Origin: Candidatus Methanoperedens sp.
GTDB lineage: Archaea; Halobacteriota; Methanosarcinia; Methanosarcinales; Methanoperedenaceae
Direction: 5' to 3'
DNA: 32,000 nucleotides
Assembly: GCA_041494705.1 (NCBI GenBank)
Contig: JBGQBI010000006.1
Location: 150,001 to 182,000 of the forward strand
Part shown: positions 385 to 31,112 of the stretch, piece by piece
Layout: each line of letters begins with the position of its first letter
Numbering within the stretch: position 1 is the stretch's first letter
The notes under the pieces: generated by a model
Seen by the model: the letters and a program-made list of their open reading frames with translations, nothing else
What the model was told of the DNA's origin: nothing
Database searches by the model: none
Position numbers and translations under genes: made by a program

Positions 385-531
385 GAACATAAAAGACCCC
401 ATAGTTCTCTCAAAGGAAAAACACCAGCCGAAGCCGCAGGAATTAAGCTTGACCTTACAAACAGATGGGAGAGCTTGATTGATTTGGCTACGAAATGGAA
501 AGCGAATAAAACCATAACAGAAGTATGTTAA
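385..531 (+). pseudogene. C-terminal fragment of an IS6-family DDE transposase
   Basis: My translation reads EHKRPHSSLKGKTPAEAAGIKLDLTNRWESLIDL...EVC*. This parallels the tail of the intact transposase at 2164-3333 (IRTHEGLDGKTPAEACGIEVMGENKWITLIQ). It has no N-terminal part and begins right after a stop codon, 13 bp downstream of the cytochrome stop. Confidence 0.6.
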
Positions 532-919: not shown

Positions 920-1438
920 TCATTCACTCCCACAAAATAGCAACCGATTTTTGACAGCGATTCGGAAATGCCTGAGCAACCGAAGACTTGACAGAGCCAC
1001 CCATCGGGTTCTGTCAAGTCTTCGTCGGTTAATTTTTGTGTCAAAATCCGTCGGATATGGATTTAAGATTATTGTTTTTGATACTACAAATCTATATTCG
1101 ATACCATCTTGACCAATAGCGATGATAACTTCAGAATGGGGTTTATAATAACAAATAATAGGAATTTCTGCAATTCCCGTTAAATCCTTCGATAAATAAC
1201 ATGGAAAAATCTTTAATTTAGATTTTTTCTCAGACTTGATAATCCTGTAAAGAATACCATCCCAACCTTTAATTAAAAGGATATTATTATACGCATCTAT
1301 GACTTCAAAATAATGTTTAATAAATATTTCTTTTATATTTCCAACTTTTTCGATGTTGGAAAGGTGGCATTCGTGTGAATCAAAAAACTCTGATGATATA
1401 GTACTACCACATCGCTCACATTTTATAATATTTTTCAT
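920..1438 (-). CDS. hypothetical Zn-ribbon protein (172-aa ORF), third gene of the IS cargo cassette
   Basis: N-terminal CxxC...HxCH motif (CERCGSTISSEFFDSHECH) followed by a region that looks beta-rich. The start overlaps the upstream stop (ATGA at 1435-1438). The last ~50 codons read through the left inverted repeat and out of the element to a stop at 920, so the native C-terminus is uncertain. Confidence 0.5.
   Translation of the reverse strand: MKNIIKCERCGSTISSEFFDSHECHLSNIEKVGNIKEIFIKHYFEVIDAYNNILLIKGWDGILYRIIKSEKKSKLKIFPCYLSKDLTGIAEIPIICYYKPHSEVIIAIGQDGIEYRFVVSKTIILNPYPTDFDTKINRRRLDRTRWVALSSLRLLRHFRIAVKNRLLFCGSE
942..998 (+). mobile_element. solo right-end remnant of a related IS6-family element
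   Basis: Positions 980-998 (ccgaagacttgacagagcc) match 17 of the terminal 19 bp of the intact element's right inverted repeat, 18 of the terminal 18. A subterminal TTTTTGACA motif at 947-955 mirrors the one in the intact end. No transposase gene is attached. Confidence 0.6.
999..1006. repeat. 8-bp target-site duplication, left copy (ACCCATCG)
   Basis: It is identical to 3341-3348 and lies immediately outside the left inverted repeat. 8 bp is the duplication size typical of the IS6 family. Confidence 0.75.
1007..1028 (+). repeat. left terminal inverted repeat (IRL) of the IS6-family element
   Basis: GGTTCTGTCAAGTCTTCGTCGG is the exact reverse complement of 3319-3340. Confidence 0.8.
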
Positions 1439-1854
1439 TCAACATCACCTGTAAAATGCGGGGACATCTGTTCAAGTTCTTCGATTTTATTCTTAGCGTC
1501 TATAAGTTCTATATTTACCCTTTCAAGCTCTTTTGTAAGTTCGATATTCATATCAGAACATTCCTTTAATTTTTTGACTACTCCTTCCCCAGGTTTTACA
1601 ATTCCATGTGTAAGAGCTTGATTTATAATAAGTAAACATGTATTTGCAGTCACCCATTTACTTAATGGGTCGGAGATTTTTGCTTTCATTTCATATTCTG
1701 TCATTGCAATGGCTAAGTAATCTGACATTTCATCTTTTTTGTCCACAACCAATTCAAGATTTCTCATACGTTGGATAAAATCTTCTATTTGTATATATAT
1801 GTCTGATTTGAATAGGTCTTCTGATATCTTTTCTTGTTTATCCAATGCAGTCAT
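1435..1854 (-). CDS. hypothetical 139-aa helical / coiled-coil protein, second gene of the IS cargo cassette
   Basis: Long ORF with ATGA overlaps at both ends. The C-terminal heptad-like segment is ELTKELERVNIELIDAKNKIEELEQ. I recognise no family. Confidence 0.55.
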   Translation of the reverse strand: MTALDKQEKISEDLFKSDIYIQIEDFIQRMRNLELVVDKKDEMSDYLAIAMTEYEMKAKISDPLSKWVTANTCLLIINQALTHGIVKPGEGVVKKLKECSDMNIELTKELERVNIELIDAKNKIEELEQMSPHFTGDVE

Positions 1855-2030
1855 TTTGTAGCCTCCGCTTTTTTTATCTTAGCTATTTTTTTACCCTTCT
1901 CTATTTCCATAGTCCATTCGAGCTTATCTCCAGCCTGTATATCAAGAAATTCCACTATACCTTCAGGTACTGTGGCTCTAAGTGATTTCGTGCCGAGTTT
2001 AGCTATTCCAACTGTACTTGATAAACTCAT
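1851..2030 (-). CDS. AbrB/SpoVT-like small DNA-binding protein (59 aa), first gene of the IS cargo cassette
   Basis: Hand translation of the minus strand: MSLSSTVGIAKLGTKSLRATVPEGIVEFLDIQAGDKLEWTMEIEKGKKIAKIKKAEATK. It has the same fold signature as the ORF at 542-703 (TVPegiveflDiqaGDkLeW). Its stop overlaps the next start (ATGA). Confidence 0.55.
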   Translation of the reverse strand: MSLSSTVGIAKLGTKSLRATVPEGIVEFLDIQAGDKLEWTMEIEKGKKIAKIKKAEATK

Positions 2031-2163
2031 AATATCACATGTTTATTAAAAGTTATAATGGTATATATATCTATCGTCAAATTTGCTAATATAACTACCA
2101 ACCAAAAGGTATATACATCATTAAAACGATAGATAAGATAGTAGATAAATTGAGGTAATTAAA

Positions 2164-3333
2164 ATGTTTGCCAAAGATAACAACCTGCAAACCGTAGGAA
2201 CAAGAGAAGAAAGAGGTAAAGCCATAGCTGAAATGGGAAATCAGATAGAAAGGATAGATGAACATTCGTATAAAGTGAAATCACAGACAAGCAACGTTAT
2301 TTATAATGTGAAAACTACTGAAATAGGCTGGAAATGTTCATGCCTTGACCACGTTACCAGAGGCTTAAAATGCAAGCATATTTGGGCAGTTGAGGTCTCT
2401 TTTGCGATAAGAAAAGAAGTTGAGGTCAGAAAGATAGAGCCTATCGTTACTATTTCGACTTGTATCTTCTGTGGTTCATCCAACCTTGAAAAAGACGGCA
2501 TCAGACATAACAAACATGGGGATATTCAAAAATACCATTGCATTGATTGTAATCGCTATTTCTCATTCAATATCGGCTTCGAGAAAATGAAACATAATCC
2601 GCAAGCAGTCACAACAGCCATGCAGTTGTATTTTTCAGGAGAATCGCTCAGGAATACGCAGAAATCGCTTAGAATACTCGGCGTTGAGGTTTCATATCAA
2701 ACTGTTAGCAATTGGATTGAAAAATACACATTATTGATGAAACAGTATGTGGATAAGCTGAAACCTAATGTTGGCGATACATGGCGAGCGGATGAGGTTT
2801 TCGTAAAATTCAGCGGTAATATGAAATATCTCTTTGCATTGATGGATGATGAAACAAGATACTGGATTGCTCAGGAAGTCGCTGATACAAAGTTTAAACA
2901 CGATGCACAAAGCTTATTCCATGAAGGTAAAGAACTCATGGGAAAAAGACCTAATGTCCTGATAACTGATGGACTAAGAGCCTATCACGATGCTTTTAAC
3001 AGGGAATTTTACCAAAATTCAAGCCCACGCTCAAAGCATATCAACGCTATAAAGCTGGATGGGGACATGAACAATAACAAAATGGAAAGGATTAATGGAG
3101 AGATAAGGGATAGGGAAAAGGTTATGAGAGGATTAAAAAAGAAAGATACGCCCATCCTCAAAGGCTATCAGATTTATCATAACTTCATAAGAACTCATGA
3201 AGGTCTTGACGGAAAGACACCCGCCGAAGCCTGCGGAATAGAGGTTATGGGTGAGAATAAATGGATTACACTAATACAGAACGCCAGCCACCCGACGAAT
3301 TTTGACAGCAAGTCTAATCCGACGAAGACTTGA
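2164..3333 (+). CDS. IS6-family DDE transposase with N-terminal SWIM-type and ribbon zinc fingers
   Basis: 389 aa. It has a CSCLDHVTRGLKCKHIW motif (CxC..CxH, SWIM-like) and CIFCGS...HCIDCNRYF. Candidate DDE residues lie in WRADEVFVKF, LITDGLRAYHDAF and NNKMERINGEIRDREK. The RTHEGLDGKTPAE tail is typical of retroviral-integrase-fold transposases. The stop lies inside the right inverted repeat. Confidence 0.85.
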   Translation: MFAKDNNLQTVGTREERGKAIAEMGNQIERIDEHSYKVKSQTSNVIYNVKTTEIGWKCSCLDHVTRGLKCKHIWAVEVSFAIRKEVEVRKIEPIVTISTCIFCGSSNLEKDGIRHNKHGDIQKYHCIDCNRYFSFNIGFEKMKHNPQAVTTAMQLYFSGESLRNTQKSLRILGVEVSYQTVSNWIEKYTLLMKQYVDKLKPNVGDTWRADEVFVKFSGNMKYLFALMDDETRYWIAQEVADTKFKHDAQSLFHEGKELMGKRPNVLITDGLRAYHDAFNREFYQNSSPRSKHINAIKLDGDMNNNKMERINGEIRDREKVMRGLKKKDTPILKGYQIYHNFIRTHEGLDGKTPAEACGIEVMGENKWITLIQNASHPTNFDSKSNPTKT

Positions 3334-3340
3334 CAGAACC
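3319..3340 (+). repeat. right terminal inverted repeat (IRR) of the IS6-family element
   Basis: CCGACGAAGACTTGACAGAACC is the exact reverse complement of 1007-1028. Confidence 0.8.
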
Positions 3341-3348
3341 ACCCATCG
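3341..3348. repeat. 8-bp target-site duplication, right copy (ACCCATCG)
   Basis: Identical to 999-1006 and immediately outside the right inverted repeat. Confidence 0.75.
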
Positions 3349-3484: not shown

Positions 3485-5122
3485 ATGGCAGCACAACTTG
3501 GCGGACAACCAATCATAATCTTAAGGGAAGGCACTGAGAGAACACGCGGGCAGGAAGCAAGGAACAATAACATCATGGCGGCAAAAGCAGTTGCAGATGC
3601 CGTGAGAACCACACTTGGACCAAAAGGAATGGATAAGATGCTCGTGGGCGGCGGGAACATTACAATCACAAACGACGGCGTCACAATCCTTAAAGAAATG
3701 GAAATAGAGCACCCTGCAGCAAAAATGCTCGTAGAGGTAGCAAAAACGCAGGATGATGAAGTCGGGGATGGAACCACCACAGCCGCAGTTCTTACAGGTG
3801 AATTGCTTTCACAGGCGCAGGTATTATTGGACCAGGACCTCCACCCCACAATAATAGTGTCAGGCTACAGGATGGCCGCTGACAAGGCAATTGAACTCCT
3901 GAAGGAAATTACCCACACAATCACAGAGGATGATGAGGAGCATCTGTTGAAAATAGCAACCACCGCAATGACAGGAAAGGGCGCCGAGGGTTCAAAAGAA
4001 AAACTTGCAAAAATCGCAGTTGCCGCTATCAAATCCATTGTTGATGAGGAAGACGGGAAAAAAATAGTTGATATTGATAATATTAAAATCGAGAAAAAAG
4101 TAGGAAAAAGCGTTGATGATTGCGAATTTATCAAAGGCATTGTTCTTGATAAAGATAAAGTCCACAACAACATGCCAAACAAGGTAACAGATGCGAAGAT
4201 TGCGCTCATCACGCGGCCTATTGAATTCAGCAAGATGGAACTTGAAGCCGAGATTAACATTTCAACACCGGGTGAGCTTTCACAATATCTTGACCAGGAA
4301 GAACAGATTGTCCATGATATCGTGAACCGGATAGCAGAGAGCGGCGCCAATGTCGTGTTGTGTCAATTGGGCATAGAAGACATCGCGCAGCATTACCTTG
4401 CAAAAGCGAATATTCTTGCAGTACAACGTGTTGCACAAAAGGATATCGAGAAAGTTGCAAGGGCAATAGGTGCAAATCTCATTACAAGCCTTGACGATTT
4501 TGACGCCTCGGACTTGGGAAGCGCGGGATTTGTTGAATTGAAGGGGCACGGCGAGGATAAGATGCTTTATATTACTGAATGCAGCAATCCCAGGGCAGTA
4601 TCGATCATTATACACGGCGGCACAGAGCATGTACTGGAAAGCACCGAACGGGCTCTTGAAGATGCGTTAAGGGTTGTGGGCGTTGCGGTTGAAGATGGGA
4701 AACTGGTTGCAGGCGCAGGCTCGCCTGAAATCGAGCTTGCCTTGCGGTTAAAGGACTACGCTTCGACATTGAAAGGCAGGGAGCAGCTTTCTGTGACAAA
4801 GTTTGCAGAGGCGCTTGAAATCATCCCGAAAACCCTTGCGGAAAATGCGGGGCTTGACCCTATAGATATGCTTGTGGAACTCCGCAGCCAGCATGAGAAG
4901 GGGAACAAGGATGCAGGGCTTAACGTATTCACAGGAAAAGCTGAAAATATGTGGAAGAACGGGGTTATTGAACCTCTTCGCGTCAAGACGCAGGCTATAA
5001 ACTCGGCAACCGAAACCGCTATCATGATTTTGAGAATAGATGACGTGCTTGCAGCTTCAGGCGGCGGCGCCGAACAGGGCGGAGCTTGCGGCATGGGAGG
5101 CATGCCTCCGGGCATGATGTGA
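3485..5122 (+). CDS. ths: thermosome subunit (group II chaperonin)
   Basis: 545 aa. TCP-1/thermosome signatures are [20 protein letters not shown] and [12 protein letters not shown], plus the C-terminal GGMPPGMM tail. Confidence 0.97.
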
Positions 5123-30542: not shown

Positions 30543-31112
30543 ATGGAAACCACGCCTACAAATTTCAATGTAAAGGACATGAACGAGAACTCAAAAAACG
30601 TCAACGCCACTCTTAAGGTAATCGAAATAGGAGAGGTCAAGGACATACATTCAAAATTCGGAGATAAACGCGTCTGTGAAGTAAAAGTAGCCGATGCGAC
30701 CGGAAGTATATTATTATCTTTATGGGATGACCAGATCGGAAAAATAGCGGCCGGTGATACGATATCAATCCAGAACGGTTATATTTCAGTCGTCAGGAAT
30801 TCCATGAGATTGAACATAGGAAAATACGGGAAGATGCTGTTATCCGAAGAACCGCTCACCGAGGTCAATACCGAACTCAATATTTCGGATAAGCATGTGG
30901 AACAGCCCGAGCGGCCAAGGAGCAGCGGCGGATACGGCGGTGGAGGCGGCAGCGGGGGCGGAGGACGAGGCGGTGGAGGCGGGTACGGCAGCATGTACGG
31001 CAGCGGCACTGAGTTTAGCGGATTCAGGCGAAGCGGATACGGCGGTGGAGGCGGCAGCGGGGGCGGTAGAAAGGATTCGCGGGATAAAAAAGGCGGCAGA
31101 GGAAGAAGGTAA
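30543..31112 (+). CDS. ssb: single OB-fold ssDNA-binding protein with a Gly/Arg-rich (RGG-like) C-terminal tail
   Basis: The OB-fold segment is VNATLKVIEIGEVKDIHSKFGDKRVCEVKVADATGSILLSLWDDQ...ISIQNGYISVVRNSMRLNIGKYG. The tail is GYGGGGGSGGGGRGGGGGYG...GGRKDSRDKKGGRGRR. Confidence 0.8.
   Translation: METTPTNFNVKDMNENSKNVNATLKVIEIGEVKDIHSKFGDKRVCEVKVADATGSILLSLWDDQIGKIAAGDTISIQNGYISVVRNSMRLNIGKYGKMLLSEEPLTEVNTELNISDKHVEQPERPRSSGGYGGGGGSGGGGRGGGGGYGSMYGSGTEFSGFRRSGYGGGGGSGGGRKDSRDKKGGRGRR

Follow-up and report, generated by a model that had tools for sequence, protein, structure and literature searches.

Insertion sequences by definition carry only what their movement needs, and the IS6 family is described as single-gene and ~0.8 kb long. 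What, then, is a cassette of three coupled genes doing inside an IS6-type element of Candidatus Methanoperedens sp.? An earlier note on this DNA saw in the trio an unusual cargo of the insertion sequence (IS) and a candidate for a novel addiction or defence module. The window, which is the whole 32,000-nucleotide stretch of DNA that was analysed, contains the following features of the element and its immediate surroundings.

920 to 1438, minus strand: gene 3, encoding a 172-aa CCHC zinc-finger protein with invariant ligands and, by its internal duplication, a predicted duplicated small beta domain
981 to 998: terminal repeat belonging to another IS of this type, which has decayed and lies tail-to-tail with the intact IS across an 8-bp spacer
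999 to 1006: left copy of the target-site duplication, ACCCATCG, which doubles as the 8-bp spacer that separates the IS from the end of its neighbour
1007 to 3340 (2334 bp), no strand: complete IS6-type transporter IS, with perfect 22-nt inverted repeats and an 8-bp direct repeat, consisting of a cargo arm and a transposase
1007 to 1028: left inverted repeat, on the cargo side, GGTTCTGTCAAGTCTTCGTCGG, 22/22 and 100% complementary to the right inverted repeat
1435 to 1854, minus strand: gene 2, encoding a 139-aa protein predicted by AF2 to be all-helical (5 helices); it has a coiled coil at the C terminus and a short acidic tail
1851 to 2030, minus strand: gene 1, encoding a 59-aa AbrB/MazE/SpoVT-like DNA-binding protein and putative regulator (PF04014, E = 3.7e-4)
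2070 to 2077, plus strand: operator-like motif TCTATCGT, which towards gene 1 reads ACGATAGA, directly preceding the cargo promoter's A/T-rich box
2126 to 2133, minus strand: inverted copy of the operator-like motif, with the transposase start codon 30 nt downstream of it
2164 to 3333, plus strand: gene for an IS6/IS240-type DDE transposase of 389 aa that carries a SWIM-like finger at its N terminus as well as a second zinc ribbon (PF13610, NF033587)
3319 to 3340: right inverted repeat, which encloses the transposase stop codon
3341 to 3348: right copy of the target-site duplication, ACCCATCG

The span from 1007 to 3340 is a single transposable unit of an archaeal IS6-like lineage, because it is closed by inverted repeats (IRs) and flanked by a target-site duplication. 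The same evidence, 22/22 IRs and 8 bp repeated on both flanks, bears out the earlier claim that the cassette is carried inside an IS. Imperfect similarity extends for ~58 nt inward of the 22-nt IRs. The 2.3 kb hold four genes, with the trio (genes 1 to 3) on the minus strand divergent from the transposase gene on the plus strand. As had also been observed from the letters, the cassette is AT-rich, with a GC content of 0.30–0.34 that lies below that of the transposase gene (0.37–0.40) and of the adjacent host genes (0.44–0.52). This genome has one copy of the IS, at a fixed site, and the same organisation is found at locus L001 and at ~25 genome loci. Duplications of 8 bp were found at L031, L116, L139, L143 and L136 and at 11 junctions. 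The transposase-side IR was missed in many loci by a simple local-alignment search, and some of the loci where it was not detected have a second arm past the transposase. Elements of this kind are also inserted precisely at the ends of copies already in place.

The transposase relates the element to IS6. It matches PF13610 with 55 bits (cut-off 27, E = 1.2e-14) and the NCBIfam IS6 model NF033587 over its full length, 1–202 (E = 8.6e-33), with a score of 113.7 bits that lies below the curated cut-off of 125, and it is 81% identical to the transposase of L001. Its nearest matches in a plasmid database are IS6 family transposases of Clostridium (27–30%), and it has extra N-terminal zinc fingers like the long clostridial IS6 transposases. 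The terminal repeats (GGTTCTGTCAAG...) begin with GG and contain an internal CTGT, which fits the published IS6 consensus (PMC7986276). The element thus resembles IS6/IS26 in its DDE_Tnp_IS240/IS6-type domain, its GG/CTGT termini and its 8-bp duplication. In contrast to the single ORF and ~0.8–0.9 kb of the IS6/IS26 norm, however, it has four genes in 2334 bp, and its relatives carry multi-gene arms in 2.1–5.7 kb. Movement through cointegrates is a further hallmark of the IS6 family. A 2021 review lists one IS6 member with a passenger gene, ISDsp3 (PMC7986276), and Harmer and Hall proposed that archaeal and long bacterial members, for which there were no experimental data, should be placed outside the IS26 family.

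The three minus-strand ORFs, of 59, 139 and 172 aa, are joined by 4-nt ATGA overlaps at 1851–1854 and 1435–1438, as the earlier note stated and as can be read directly in the sequence. The same three-gene order, again coupled, recurs in 23 non-redundant elements, in each of which the start codon at a junction lies between -20 and +11 nt from the upstream stop codon. Genes 1 to 3 are the passenger arm of the IS and form one translationally coupled operon divergent from the transposase gene. The coupling in 23 elements, the IRs and the duplication together sustain the picture of a tightly coupled operon that is headed by a small AbrB-type DNA binder and travels on a mobile element. Mean pairwise identity is 0.61 for gene 1, the highest of the four genes, 0.27 for gene 3 and 0.19 for gene 2, and genes 2 and 3 evolve at three to four times the rate of the transposase. 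Both are coding, because their pN/pS values are 0.28–0.74 (gene 2) and 0.22–0.63 (gene 3) and below 1 in every pair compared; pN/pS is given instead of dN/dS since every pair available for comparison has saturated synonymous sites.

The product of gene 1 is AbrB-like, as first suggested. Its best Pfam match is PF04014 (MazE_antitoxin), of which it covers positions 4–45 of 48 with 20.8 bits, just under the cut-off of 24.7, and 9 of 13 relatives match the same model with a best E-value of 3.2e-5. Relatives form 189 homologue clusters at ≥63% identity and are named 'AbrB family transcriptional regulator' by their sources and 'antitoxin component of YhaV-PrlF' by JGI. A search of the PDB with the gene 1 sequence profile matched no solved structure. 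Only ~7 residues follow the domain, and relatives have short tails that vary. Gene 1 thus resembles the AbrB/MazE/SpoVT swapped-hairpin proteins in model coverage and in the naming of its relatives, but its score and very high conservation set it apart as a distinct archaeal subfamily tied to the IS.

An 8-nt motif, TCTA[CT]C[GT][TA] (TCTAYCKW), keeps a constant geometry in 39 loci, where the 150 nt that precede gene 1 are ~50-fold enriched in it. Because it occurs at both divergent promoters with this enrichment, gene 1 probably encodes a small AbrB-type regulator of the transposase gene and of its own operon, and we infer from the pattern of sites that the TCTAYCKW copies would be its operators. 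Alternatively, the motif may simply belong to the promoter.

Gene 2 encodes a helical protein with a C-terminal coiled coil, in agreement with the earlier reading. An AF2 model of the protein alone, of moderate confidence (pLDDT 67), is all-helical and ends in a long C-terminal helix, and comparison of the gene 2 profile with the PDB returned matches to leucine zippers and coiled coils only, none of them significant. A Foldseek search with this model gave meaningless matches, the best of them (E = 0.03) to helical ribosomal proteins. Homologues occupy the same position in 23 elements; a word-indexed protein search returned no relative of gene 2, and scanning genomes with a pattern for gene 2 was equally negative. 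With the Bathyarchaeia sequence included, the gene 2 alignment diverged too strongly to serve as a seed.

Gene 3 leaves the IS through the left IR, as the earlier note had seen, with codons 1–144 inside the element and the last 28 codons and the stop in flanking DNA. In 23 of 24 elements the ORF crosses the IS end, so that the lack of an internal stop, with a tail drawn from the flank, is a constant feature of the IS backbone. The metal ligands C7, C10, H22 and C24 (CxxC-x11-HxC) and a G..DG.LY motif are invariant. The CxxC..HxCH ribbon described previously therefore stands as far as these four ligands go, while the histidine that follows, H25, is not conserved. An internal duplication lies within the region after the finger, and the beta-rich character proposed for this remainder agrees with a low-confidence AF2 prediction of beta structure from a two-sequence alignment (pLDDT 40). 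In a library of 1.8 billion proteins the gene 3 family comprises 122 clusters, all of similar size and none annotated. The word-indexed protein search returned a single relative, and a scan of viral contigs for gene 3 found nothing.

Both downstream proteins fall outside described families, as had been supposed. Searches of Pfam, NCBIfam, PADLOC and PHROGs with the single proteins 2 and 3 gave no significant match, as did a Pfam scan of 28 gene 3 relatives. Profile searches of the PDB with both found generic zinc-finger and coiled-coil similarity only, nothing of it significant, and the fold search was likewise negative. Neither protein matched the toxin models of Pfam, NCBIfam and PADLOC, including MazF, PIN, Doc and YhaV, and none of the three trio proteins had a match in PADLOC-DB 2.0 with E < 0.06. 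No toxin-like or enzymatic signature was found in gene 2 or gene 3, and we see no catalytic signature in gene 3 because its conserved residues are the zinc ligands and the glycine motif only.

The trio is a conserved unit elsewhere, a point on which the earlier proposal had been staked. Among 50 GTDB genome loci seeded on gene 1, about 25, in several archaeal phyla, show an IS6-type transposase facing genes for an AbrB-like, a helical coiled-coil and a CCHC zinc-finger protein. The relatives of the trio were reached by way of the conserved gene 1 and the transposase. Hosts of this layout are Bathyarchaeia, Nitrososphaeria, Methanomethylicia and Methanoperedens, with further metagenome loci from Bathyarchaeia and others; at L001 the layout is the same, with 41% identity for gene 2 and 31% for gene 3. 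Complete trios were found only beside an IS6-like transposase or its remnants, and none was found on plasmids or viral contigs. Because the deepest and most scattered branches of a rough neighbour-joining tree of the transposase belong to trio carriers, the trio is probably the ancestral arm of the whole archaeal IS6-like lineage. The idea that it is an unusual, private cargo of this one IS has thus been given up.

Sister elements show that the arm is replaceable. Long IRs and perfect 8-bp target-site duplications mark L116 (4076 bp), L139 (3201 bp), L143 (3771 bp) and L136 (2123 bp), and the cargo genes found among these elements match N6_N4_Mtase, ParB_N, MTaX1 with HNH_2, and N6_Mtase. Within the same transposase clade, the same arm holds DNA methylases, HNH nucleases, ParB-like genes or trios led by a ribbon-helix-helix (RHH) protein. 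The lead gene is of the AbrB or the RHH type depending on the element, with the three-gene layout kept, and the middle gene of the RHH-led trios is possibly homologous to gene 2 (hhalign probability 31%). L143 and L116 carry restriction-modification (RM) cargo and lack genes 2 and 3, and L139 has none of the trio genes. Because L139 has IRs and a target-site duplication, the trio is dispensable for transposition and lies outside its chemistry. An obligatory role of the trio as part of the IS core was considered and dropped after a metagenome scan seeded on the transposase found other cargo in the same slot.

What the arm does for the element can be approached through these neighbours. RM genes of the sister IS sit in the same slot and orientation as the trio, often behind a small RHH protein facing the transposase, as in type II RM cassettes with a small controller. 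By analogy, this argues that the trio keeps company typical of addiction or defence cargo, although, unlike those cassettes, it has no methylase or nuclease domain. Omega-epsilon-zeta and PaaR-PaaA-ParE are three-component addiction systems with a separate regulator, in which a small DNA binder is followed by a small helical protein and an effector. The trio resembles the omega-epsilon-zeta type in its stand-alone small regulator, small helical protein and third gene, and in the coupling kept in 23 elements, and it resembles both systems in having a regulator that lacks a neutralising tail and is AbrB or RHH by module. In contrast, gene 2 has no sequence or fold similarity to epsilon or PaaA, and gene 3 has none to zeta or ParE and shows neither kinase nor gyrase-poison features. 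In the Tn3 family, toxin-antitoxin (TA) pairs lie beside transposition genes, and a role in stable invasion during transposition has been proposed for them (Lima-Mendez et al. 2020, PMC7157771). As in other transporter IS and in TA-bearing Tn3 elements, the passenger module here adjoins the transposase gene and shares a regulatory region with it. The Tn3 passengers, however, belong to recognisable TA families (ParE, PIN, Gp49, HEPN), whereas genes 2 and 3 match none of these, in an archaeal host and beside a transposase of another family.

We tentatively favour, at slightly less than even confidence, an explanation in which the trio is a coupled, replaceable arm with gene 1 as regulator and genes 2 and 3 as a persistence module. 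In this process, the gene 1 product would bind the TCTAYCKW sites that border the two promoter cores, that of the operon and that of the transposase gene, coupling expression of the transposase with that of the arm. The products of genes 2 and 3, respectively a coiled-coil dimer and a zinc-finger/beta protein, would be non-enzymatic partners that aid persistence of the element in its host. The gene order would then read as a three-part module of regulator (gene 1), fast-evolving helical neutraliser (gene 2) and more conserved effector (gene 3). The exchange of AbrB and RHH lead genes, the higher conservation of gene 3 than of gene 2 and the low GC content of the arm follow the logic of such a module, and comparison with known systems hints that genes 2 and 3 may be an addiction- or defence-like pair. 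It is rather doubtful that they amount to a new non-enzymatic addiction or anti-invader module, native to an undescribed archaeal lineage of IS6-like transporter IS, interchangeable with RM and wired by AbrB to the transposase promoter.

Several observations count against a role in persistence. No toxin, antitoxin or defence protein was found to be homologous, and the restriction of complete trios to IS6-like transposases or their remnants is unexpected, since portable TA and defence modules usually occur in many contexts. The operator-like sites on the transposase promoter suggest transposition control, and the trio looks ancestral to the lineage, which would also suit a role in the element's own regulation. 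An effector with a C terminus that varies with the insertion site would be odd, and the IS in this genome, single-copy at a fixed site, gives no sign of activity.

The alternative to which some of these points lead is that the trio is a native module of transposition control, in which the AbrB-like protein would act as repressor or timer of the transposase promoter and genes 2 and 3 would modulate transposase activity, transpososome assembly or target choice, for example as an anti-repressor and DNA-end-binding pair. The element would then keep genes 2 and 3 for tuning transposition and not for host harm or protection. This is a serious rival and just as natural a reading, although on the whole somewhat less probable. 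In addition to the association of complete trios with this transposase clade or its remnants, on its deepest and most scattered branches, transposition control is favoured by operator-like motifs that abut both the transposase start and the promoter, by the physical interlocking, seen in 23 of 24 elements, of gene 3 and the left IR, by the lack of enzymatic motifs in genes 2 and 3, and by the N terminus of gene 3, a C2HC zinc finger of the nucleic-acid- or protein-binding type. However, the perfect IRs and 8-bp duplications of L139, L143 and L116 mean that these elements transposed without genes 2 and 3, and trio-less L139 also shows end-targeted insertion. The rapid divergence of genes 2 and 3 relative to the transposase would also be unusual for partners of a conserved enzyme.

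We consider it quite unlikely that the trio is a classical type II TA system in which the AbrB-like protein is an antitoxin of the MazE/VapB type and one downstream gene is the toxin. The match of gene 1 to MazE_antitoxin, the YhaV-PrlF label of its relatives and the tight coupling behind a small, first-placed DNA binder would all suit such a system. In contrast, gene 1 is at 59 aa essentially the swapped-hairpin domain, with no C-terminal extension to bind a toxin, and no other gene of the element is as conserved, whereas antitoxins are usually the fastest to diverge. On these two points gene 1 departs from a typical type II antitoxin and looks like a regulator. Moreover, the downstream proteins match no toxin model, and three genes are conserved instead of two.

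That genes 2 and 3 are decaying or spurious, function-free ORFs, open by chance in AT-rich DNA, would agree with their very low mean identity, their lack of a family assignment and the poor structure model of gene 3, but is highly improbable given that 23 diverged elements from several phyla preserve both as intact ORFs with unchanged order and start-stop coupling, that the zinc ligands are invariant, that pN/pS is below 1 throughout and that gene 3 has 122 clusters of similar size.

The element belongs to a widespread archaeal branch of IS6, with hosts among Methanoperedens, Bathyarchaeia and ammonia-oxidising archaea, whose members are two to seven times larger than the ~0.8-kb norm and whose cargo arms range from a conserved protein trio to complete restriction-modification systems. 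If the trio serves in transposition control, it would be the first set of accessory proteins for an IS6-like element. If, as we tentatively favour, genes 2 and 3 form a persistence module, they would be a new protein pair among the few archaeal addiction or defence systems and would mean that even the simplest transposons can bring their own retention device. The conserved operator-like motif and the habit of end-to-end insertion offer experimental handles on these elements.

The transposition unit around the three coupled genes and its left flank contain the following features.

Features of the insertion sequence (IS) and its flank, in window coordinates
394-495, plus strand: transposase C-terminal fragment (HMM positions 334-367 of 370)
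542-703: diverged AbrB-like ORF, 53 aa, ATGA-coupled to a 28-aa ORF at 700-788
920-1438, minus strand: gene 3 ORF, zinc-finger protein, 172 aa
981-998: terminal repeat of a second, decayed IS
981-1028: end-to-end junction
999-1006 and 3341-3348: flanking 8-bp repeat ACCCATCG
1007-1028 and 3319-3340: terminal inverted repeats (IRs), 22 nt, perfect
1435-1854, minus strand: gene 2 ORF, helical protein, 139 aa
1851-2030, minus strand: gene 1 ORF, AbrB-like protein, 59 aa
2070-2077 and 2126-2133: copies of an operator-like motif
2164-3333, plus strand: transposase ORF, 389 aa, opposite the trio over a 133-nt spacer

The transposase is a DDE enzyme of the IS6/IS240 type (PF13610, 55 bits), which aligns end to end with the NCBIfam IS6 model (113.7 bits, below the 125-bit cut-off) and has weak SWIM and zinc-ribbon matches at its N terminus. 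Hallmarks of the IS6 family are IR tips of the form GG...CTGT and an 8-bp duplication (PMC7986276). By these hallmarks, the perfect IRs and the copies of ACCCATCG on both sides indicate that 1007-3340 (2334 bp) moved as a single piece; the trio is inside the IS, as the earlier note had stated. The stop/start overlaps by which that note joined the three genes can be read in the sequence, with ATGA at 1851-1854 for genes 1 and 2 and at 1435-1438 for genes 2 and 3. Gene 3 does pass through the left IR: it has no stop codon within the IS, where 144 of its codons lie, and 28 codons and the stop are in the flank. The cassette is also AT-rich: its GC content is 0.30-0.34, lower than in the transposase (0.37-0.40) and in the thermosome gene and other host genes nearby (0.44-0.52). 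On one side of the IS is the 3' end of a multihaem (CxxCH) cytochrome gene of very large size (39-371; 1409 aa in the source contig), and on the other is a gene for a thermosome subunit (3485-5122). These surroundings are consistent with a Methanoperedens-like host, and several independent assemblies share the same insertion. The stretch between the cytochrome gene and the intact IS (372-1006) is a graveyard of related IS fragments. Elsewhere in the window, a glycine-rich GGC/GGT repeat region occupies 30916-31066.

A word-indexed protein search returned no relative of gene 2 and only a single one of gene 3. The latter is on a Methanoperedens MAG contig with an identical four-gene layout (L001; L-numbers denote fetched genome or metagenome loci), where identity to the window's element is 81% for the transposase, ~75% for gene 1, 41% for gene 2, and 31% for gene 3. 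The family of gene 1 is large and very conserved (189 clusters, identity at least 63%), and the metagenome neighbourhoods of gene 1 contain a transposase facing an AbrB gene, a 160-200-aa protein, and a zinc-finger protein of ~100-150 aa. An alignment scan for gene 1 over one genome per GTDB species gave 50 loci, which belong to Bathyarchaeia, Nitrososphaeria, Methanomethylicia, and a few bins with bacterial labels. Iterative HMM searches over the ORFs of these loci found the complete four-gene layout in ~25 of the 50, with 23 non-redundant complete elements; in most of the remaining loci, gene 1 occurs alone or together with transposase fragments. The 23 elements are most alike in gene 1 (mean pairwise identity 0.61), followed by the transposase (0.53), gene 3 (0.27), and gene 2 (0.19). 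Every pair gives a pN/pS below 1 for genes 2 and 3, although synonymous sites are saturated. At all 46 junctions between the genes, the start codon lies -20 to +11 nt from the upstream stop, with a 4-nt overlap in 21. An exhaustive HMM search of 1.84 billion representative proteins grouped the relatives of gene 3 into 122 clusters, all of 57-192 aa and none with an added domain. Therefore, the recurrence, the coupling, the pN/pS values, and the 122 clusters indicate that the genes of the trio are real, coding, and co-inherited. Five Bathyarchaeia loci (L036, L043, L048, L056, and L061; ~3600-4180 in each) hold a variant AbrB-like gene (MSLKSKTSIARPKSKSLRATVPEG...) facing an intact ORF of 80-94 aa, which corresponds to the SWIM-like N-terminal part of the transposase only. 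These loci are without the DDE domain and genes 2 and 3, and keep the operator-like motif; the pairs are either domesticated regulators or a recurrent product of decay.

At 59 aa, gene 1 encodes little more than a DNA-binding domain. It matches PF04014 (MazE/AbrB/SpoVT) over positions 4-45 of 48 with 20.8 bits, slightly under the cut-off of 24.7; 9 of 13 relatives match the same model, and the gene 1 sequence profile matched no solved structure. The product of gene 2 appears to be helical with a C-terminal coiled coil, as first proposed: its AF2 model (single sequence, pLDDT 67) is all-helical with a C-terminal helix of 40 residues, and the sole matches of its profile (30 relatives) are leucine zippers and designed coiled coils, via the C-terminal third. 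It has no family match in Pfam, NCBIfam, PADLOC, or PHROGs, Foldseek with the model gave nothing significant, and many relatives share a short acidic end motif (G/S-D/E-V/L-E). In gene 3, residues C7, C10, H22, and C24 (CxxC-x11-HxC) are invariant and are followed by a G..DG.LY motif. Its profile searches stayed below threshold, with similarity to FCS, C2HC, and UBZ zinc fingers only, and its AF2 model is unreliable (pLDDT 40). Family and profile searches with genes 2 and 3, and the fold search with gene 2, agree with the earlier note in placing neither in any family. A small beta unit is duplicated in the window's gene 3 (residues 28-135; 1034-1357, minus strand; 32% identity over 38 residues) and present as one copy in most relatives, which explains its 172 aa compared to ~100 in most of them. 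One gene 3 relative of 185 aa (P0189) has two full copies of the zinc-finger-plus-beta unit. In L046, an AbrB-family gene that has no transposase beside it is followed by a 139-aa ORF (4173-4592) with a C2H2-like finger, a short beta region, and a coiled coil at the C terminus, perhaps a fusion-like equivalent of genes 3 and 2.

The spacers between the transposase and gene 1 cannot otherwise be aligned but have in common copies of TCTA[CT]C[GT][TA], which read ACGGTAGAT, ACGATAGAT, or TAGGTAGAT towards each gene. Motif density in the 150 nt upstream of gene 1 is ~50 times that elsewhere (39 loci), and the geometry is constant, with one or two copies at -91 to -122 (counted from gene 1), adjacent to the start of the transposase, and an inverted copy at -26 to -42, directly upstream of an A/T-rich TATA-like box. 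The element's most conserved protein, gene 1, is a DNA binder, and its most conserved non-coding feature is this motif. From these patterns we infer that gene 1 may bind the motif and control the promoters of both the transposase and the operon. Alternatively, another factor could bind the motif, or the promoters themselves could include it.

A transposase-seeded metagenome scan yielded 545 confirmed relatives, and the best 80 of these (58-70% identity) were analysed. Among those of the 80 that have enough upstream sequence, only 6 carry the AbrB-family trio, and the rest have different genes in the same position and orientation. About 20 arms encode a small ribbon-helix-helix-type (RHH) protein, then a mid-sized helical protein, then a small last gene that runs through the IR; ~14 carry DNA methylases, restriction-modification (RM) enzymes, or ParB-domain proteins; and in further arms a second AbrB subfamily is accompanied by unrelated genes, among them that of a proteasome-like hydrolase. 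Arm domains confirmed with Pfam are N6_N4_Mtase, ParB_N, MTaX1+HNH_2, N6_Mtase with a specificity domain, RHH_5, and MazE-like.

Sister elements, shared-tail genes, and junctions, in locus coordinates
L098, 1169-5022: IS
L111, 823-6547: IS
L116, 578-4653: IS of 4076 bp, long IRs, perfect 8-bp duplication
L136: IS of 2123 bp, long IRs, perfect 8-bp duplication
L139, 1460-4660: IS of 3201 bp, 51-nt perfect IRs, perfect 8-bp duplication
L143, 883-4653: IS of 3771 bp, long IRs, perfect 8-bp duplication
L083 2357-2686, L088 2468-2719, L110 154-429, L118 1358-1720: last genes with a common tail, compared with L031 1898-2311
L039 1565-1586; L059 4731-4752 and 7774-7795; L087 2151-2172 and 6475-6496; L091 518-539; L098 1154-1175; L111 6541-6562; L121 3141-3162; L131 6354-6375; L139 1445-1466; L140 2562-2583: end-to-end junctions

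Long IRs and perfect duplications secure the boundaries of the elements in L116, L136, L139, and L143. The element in L139 has no trio gene yet has IRs and a duplication, and genes 1-3 are therefore unnecessary for the transposition reaction. In a rough neighbour-joining tree of the transposases, trio carriers are on the deepest branches and across the whole tree, and cargos of methylases, RM enzymes, or ParB proteins occur mainly within a single nested clade. From this distribution, the trio looks like an ancestral arm that would have been replaced several times later. The elements in L116, L139, L143, L111, and L098 (3-5.7 kb, same transposase clade) carry methylase/HNH RM sets, ParB_N-methylase fusions, ParB_N-HTH proteins, and type IIG-like enzymes, and in L111 and L039 cargo seems to flank the transposase on both sides. 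Unrelated last genes of different arms share a C-terminal peptide, such as ...DGSYHEGSNRRKVNRT or ...KKSDxDFTEP. This peptide is encoded by subterminal and IR DNA, and the IS backbone therefore gives a stopless open reading tail to whichever gene ends the arm.

The repeat of the decayed element (981-998) runs in the opposite direction, and the gap between it and the intact IS is exactly the 8-bp duplication. All 149 fetched loci were scanned for two IS ends, the first facing outward and the second inward, with any 4-12 nt between them; the 19 matches represent 13 independent junctions. The spacer is exactly 8 in all 19, and the junction 8-mer is repeated at the far end of the junction-bounded IS in 11 of the 13. 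Because these 8-bp spacers match target duplications, the elements insert exactly against the ends of resident relatives; in L087, the insertion is into the spacer of a pre-existing junction. The trio-less, RM-carrying element in L139 has the same habit, making it a property of the transposase and the ends, not of the trio. As a result of end-to-end insertion, the tail of gene 3 outside the IS is the reverse reading of another IR. Targeting of IRs is known for IS30 and targeting of existing copies for IS26, and we know of no IS6-like instance of the 8-bp end-to-end form.

We conclude with high confidence that the element is a transporter IS of an archaeal IS6-like lineage and that the trio is its passenger operon, with an AbrB-type regulator as the lead gene. 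We tentatively favour a persistence function for genes 2 and 3, possibly addiction- or defence-like, on five comparative grounds: RM systems, the classic selfish retention and defence modules, otherwise fill the slot; the lead regulator can be of AbrB or RHH type, a swap that also occurs in the control modules of toxin-antitoxin (TA) and RM systems; an arm of regulator, helical protein, then effector is ordered like the three-component addiction systems omega-epsilon-zeta and PaaR-PaaA-ParE; gene 2 evolves more quickly than gene 3, just as neutralisers usually outpace effectors; and the base composition of the arm is foreign. However, genes 2 and 3 resemble no toxin or defence protein in family and profile searches, nor gene 2 in the fold search, and no complete trio was found away from a transposase or its remnants. 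Both observations fit a trio that tunes transposition, as do its ancestral look and the operator-like sites on the transposase promoter, which also count against persistence; we consider such tuning a serious rival, though a less probable one. A plain TA pair of two genes is unlikely: its antitoxin would be gene 1, which has no tail for neutralising a toxin and evolves most slowly of all the genes. The conservation of the genes excludes non-functional ORFs. The earlier note was correct in all essentials of its observation, and its interpretation as TA- or defence-like cargo is partly supported: the genes are mobile, coupled, and conserved, with RM systems in the same slot, but have no similarity to toxins or defence proteins.

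Members of the IS6 family are 789-880 bp, with longer zinc-finger transposases in two clades, and one member with a single passenger gene has been mentioned (2021 review, PMC7986276). In a survey of thaumarchaeal mobile elements, the IS described have one or two genes and AbrB is not mentioned, and a 2026 IS survey of 17,237 archaeal genomes never uses the word 'passenger'. Our literature search found no account of the four-gene architecture, the trio, the variable arm, or the operator motif, although absence there is not proof. The nearest conceptual precedent for the placement of the trio is in Tn3-family transposons, where TA pairs adjoin the transposition genes and are proposed to help stable invasion (Lima-Mendez et al, 2020, PMC7157771). 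The IS described here is of a known kind, a transporter IS of IS6 type, but carries an undescribed conserved three-gene arm.
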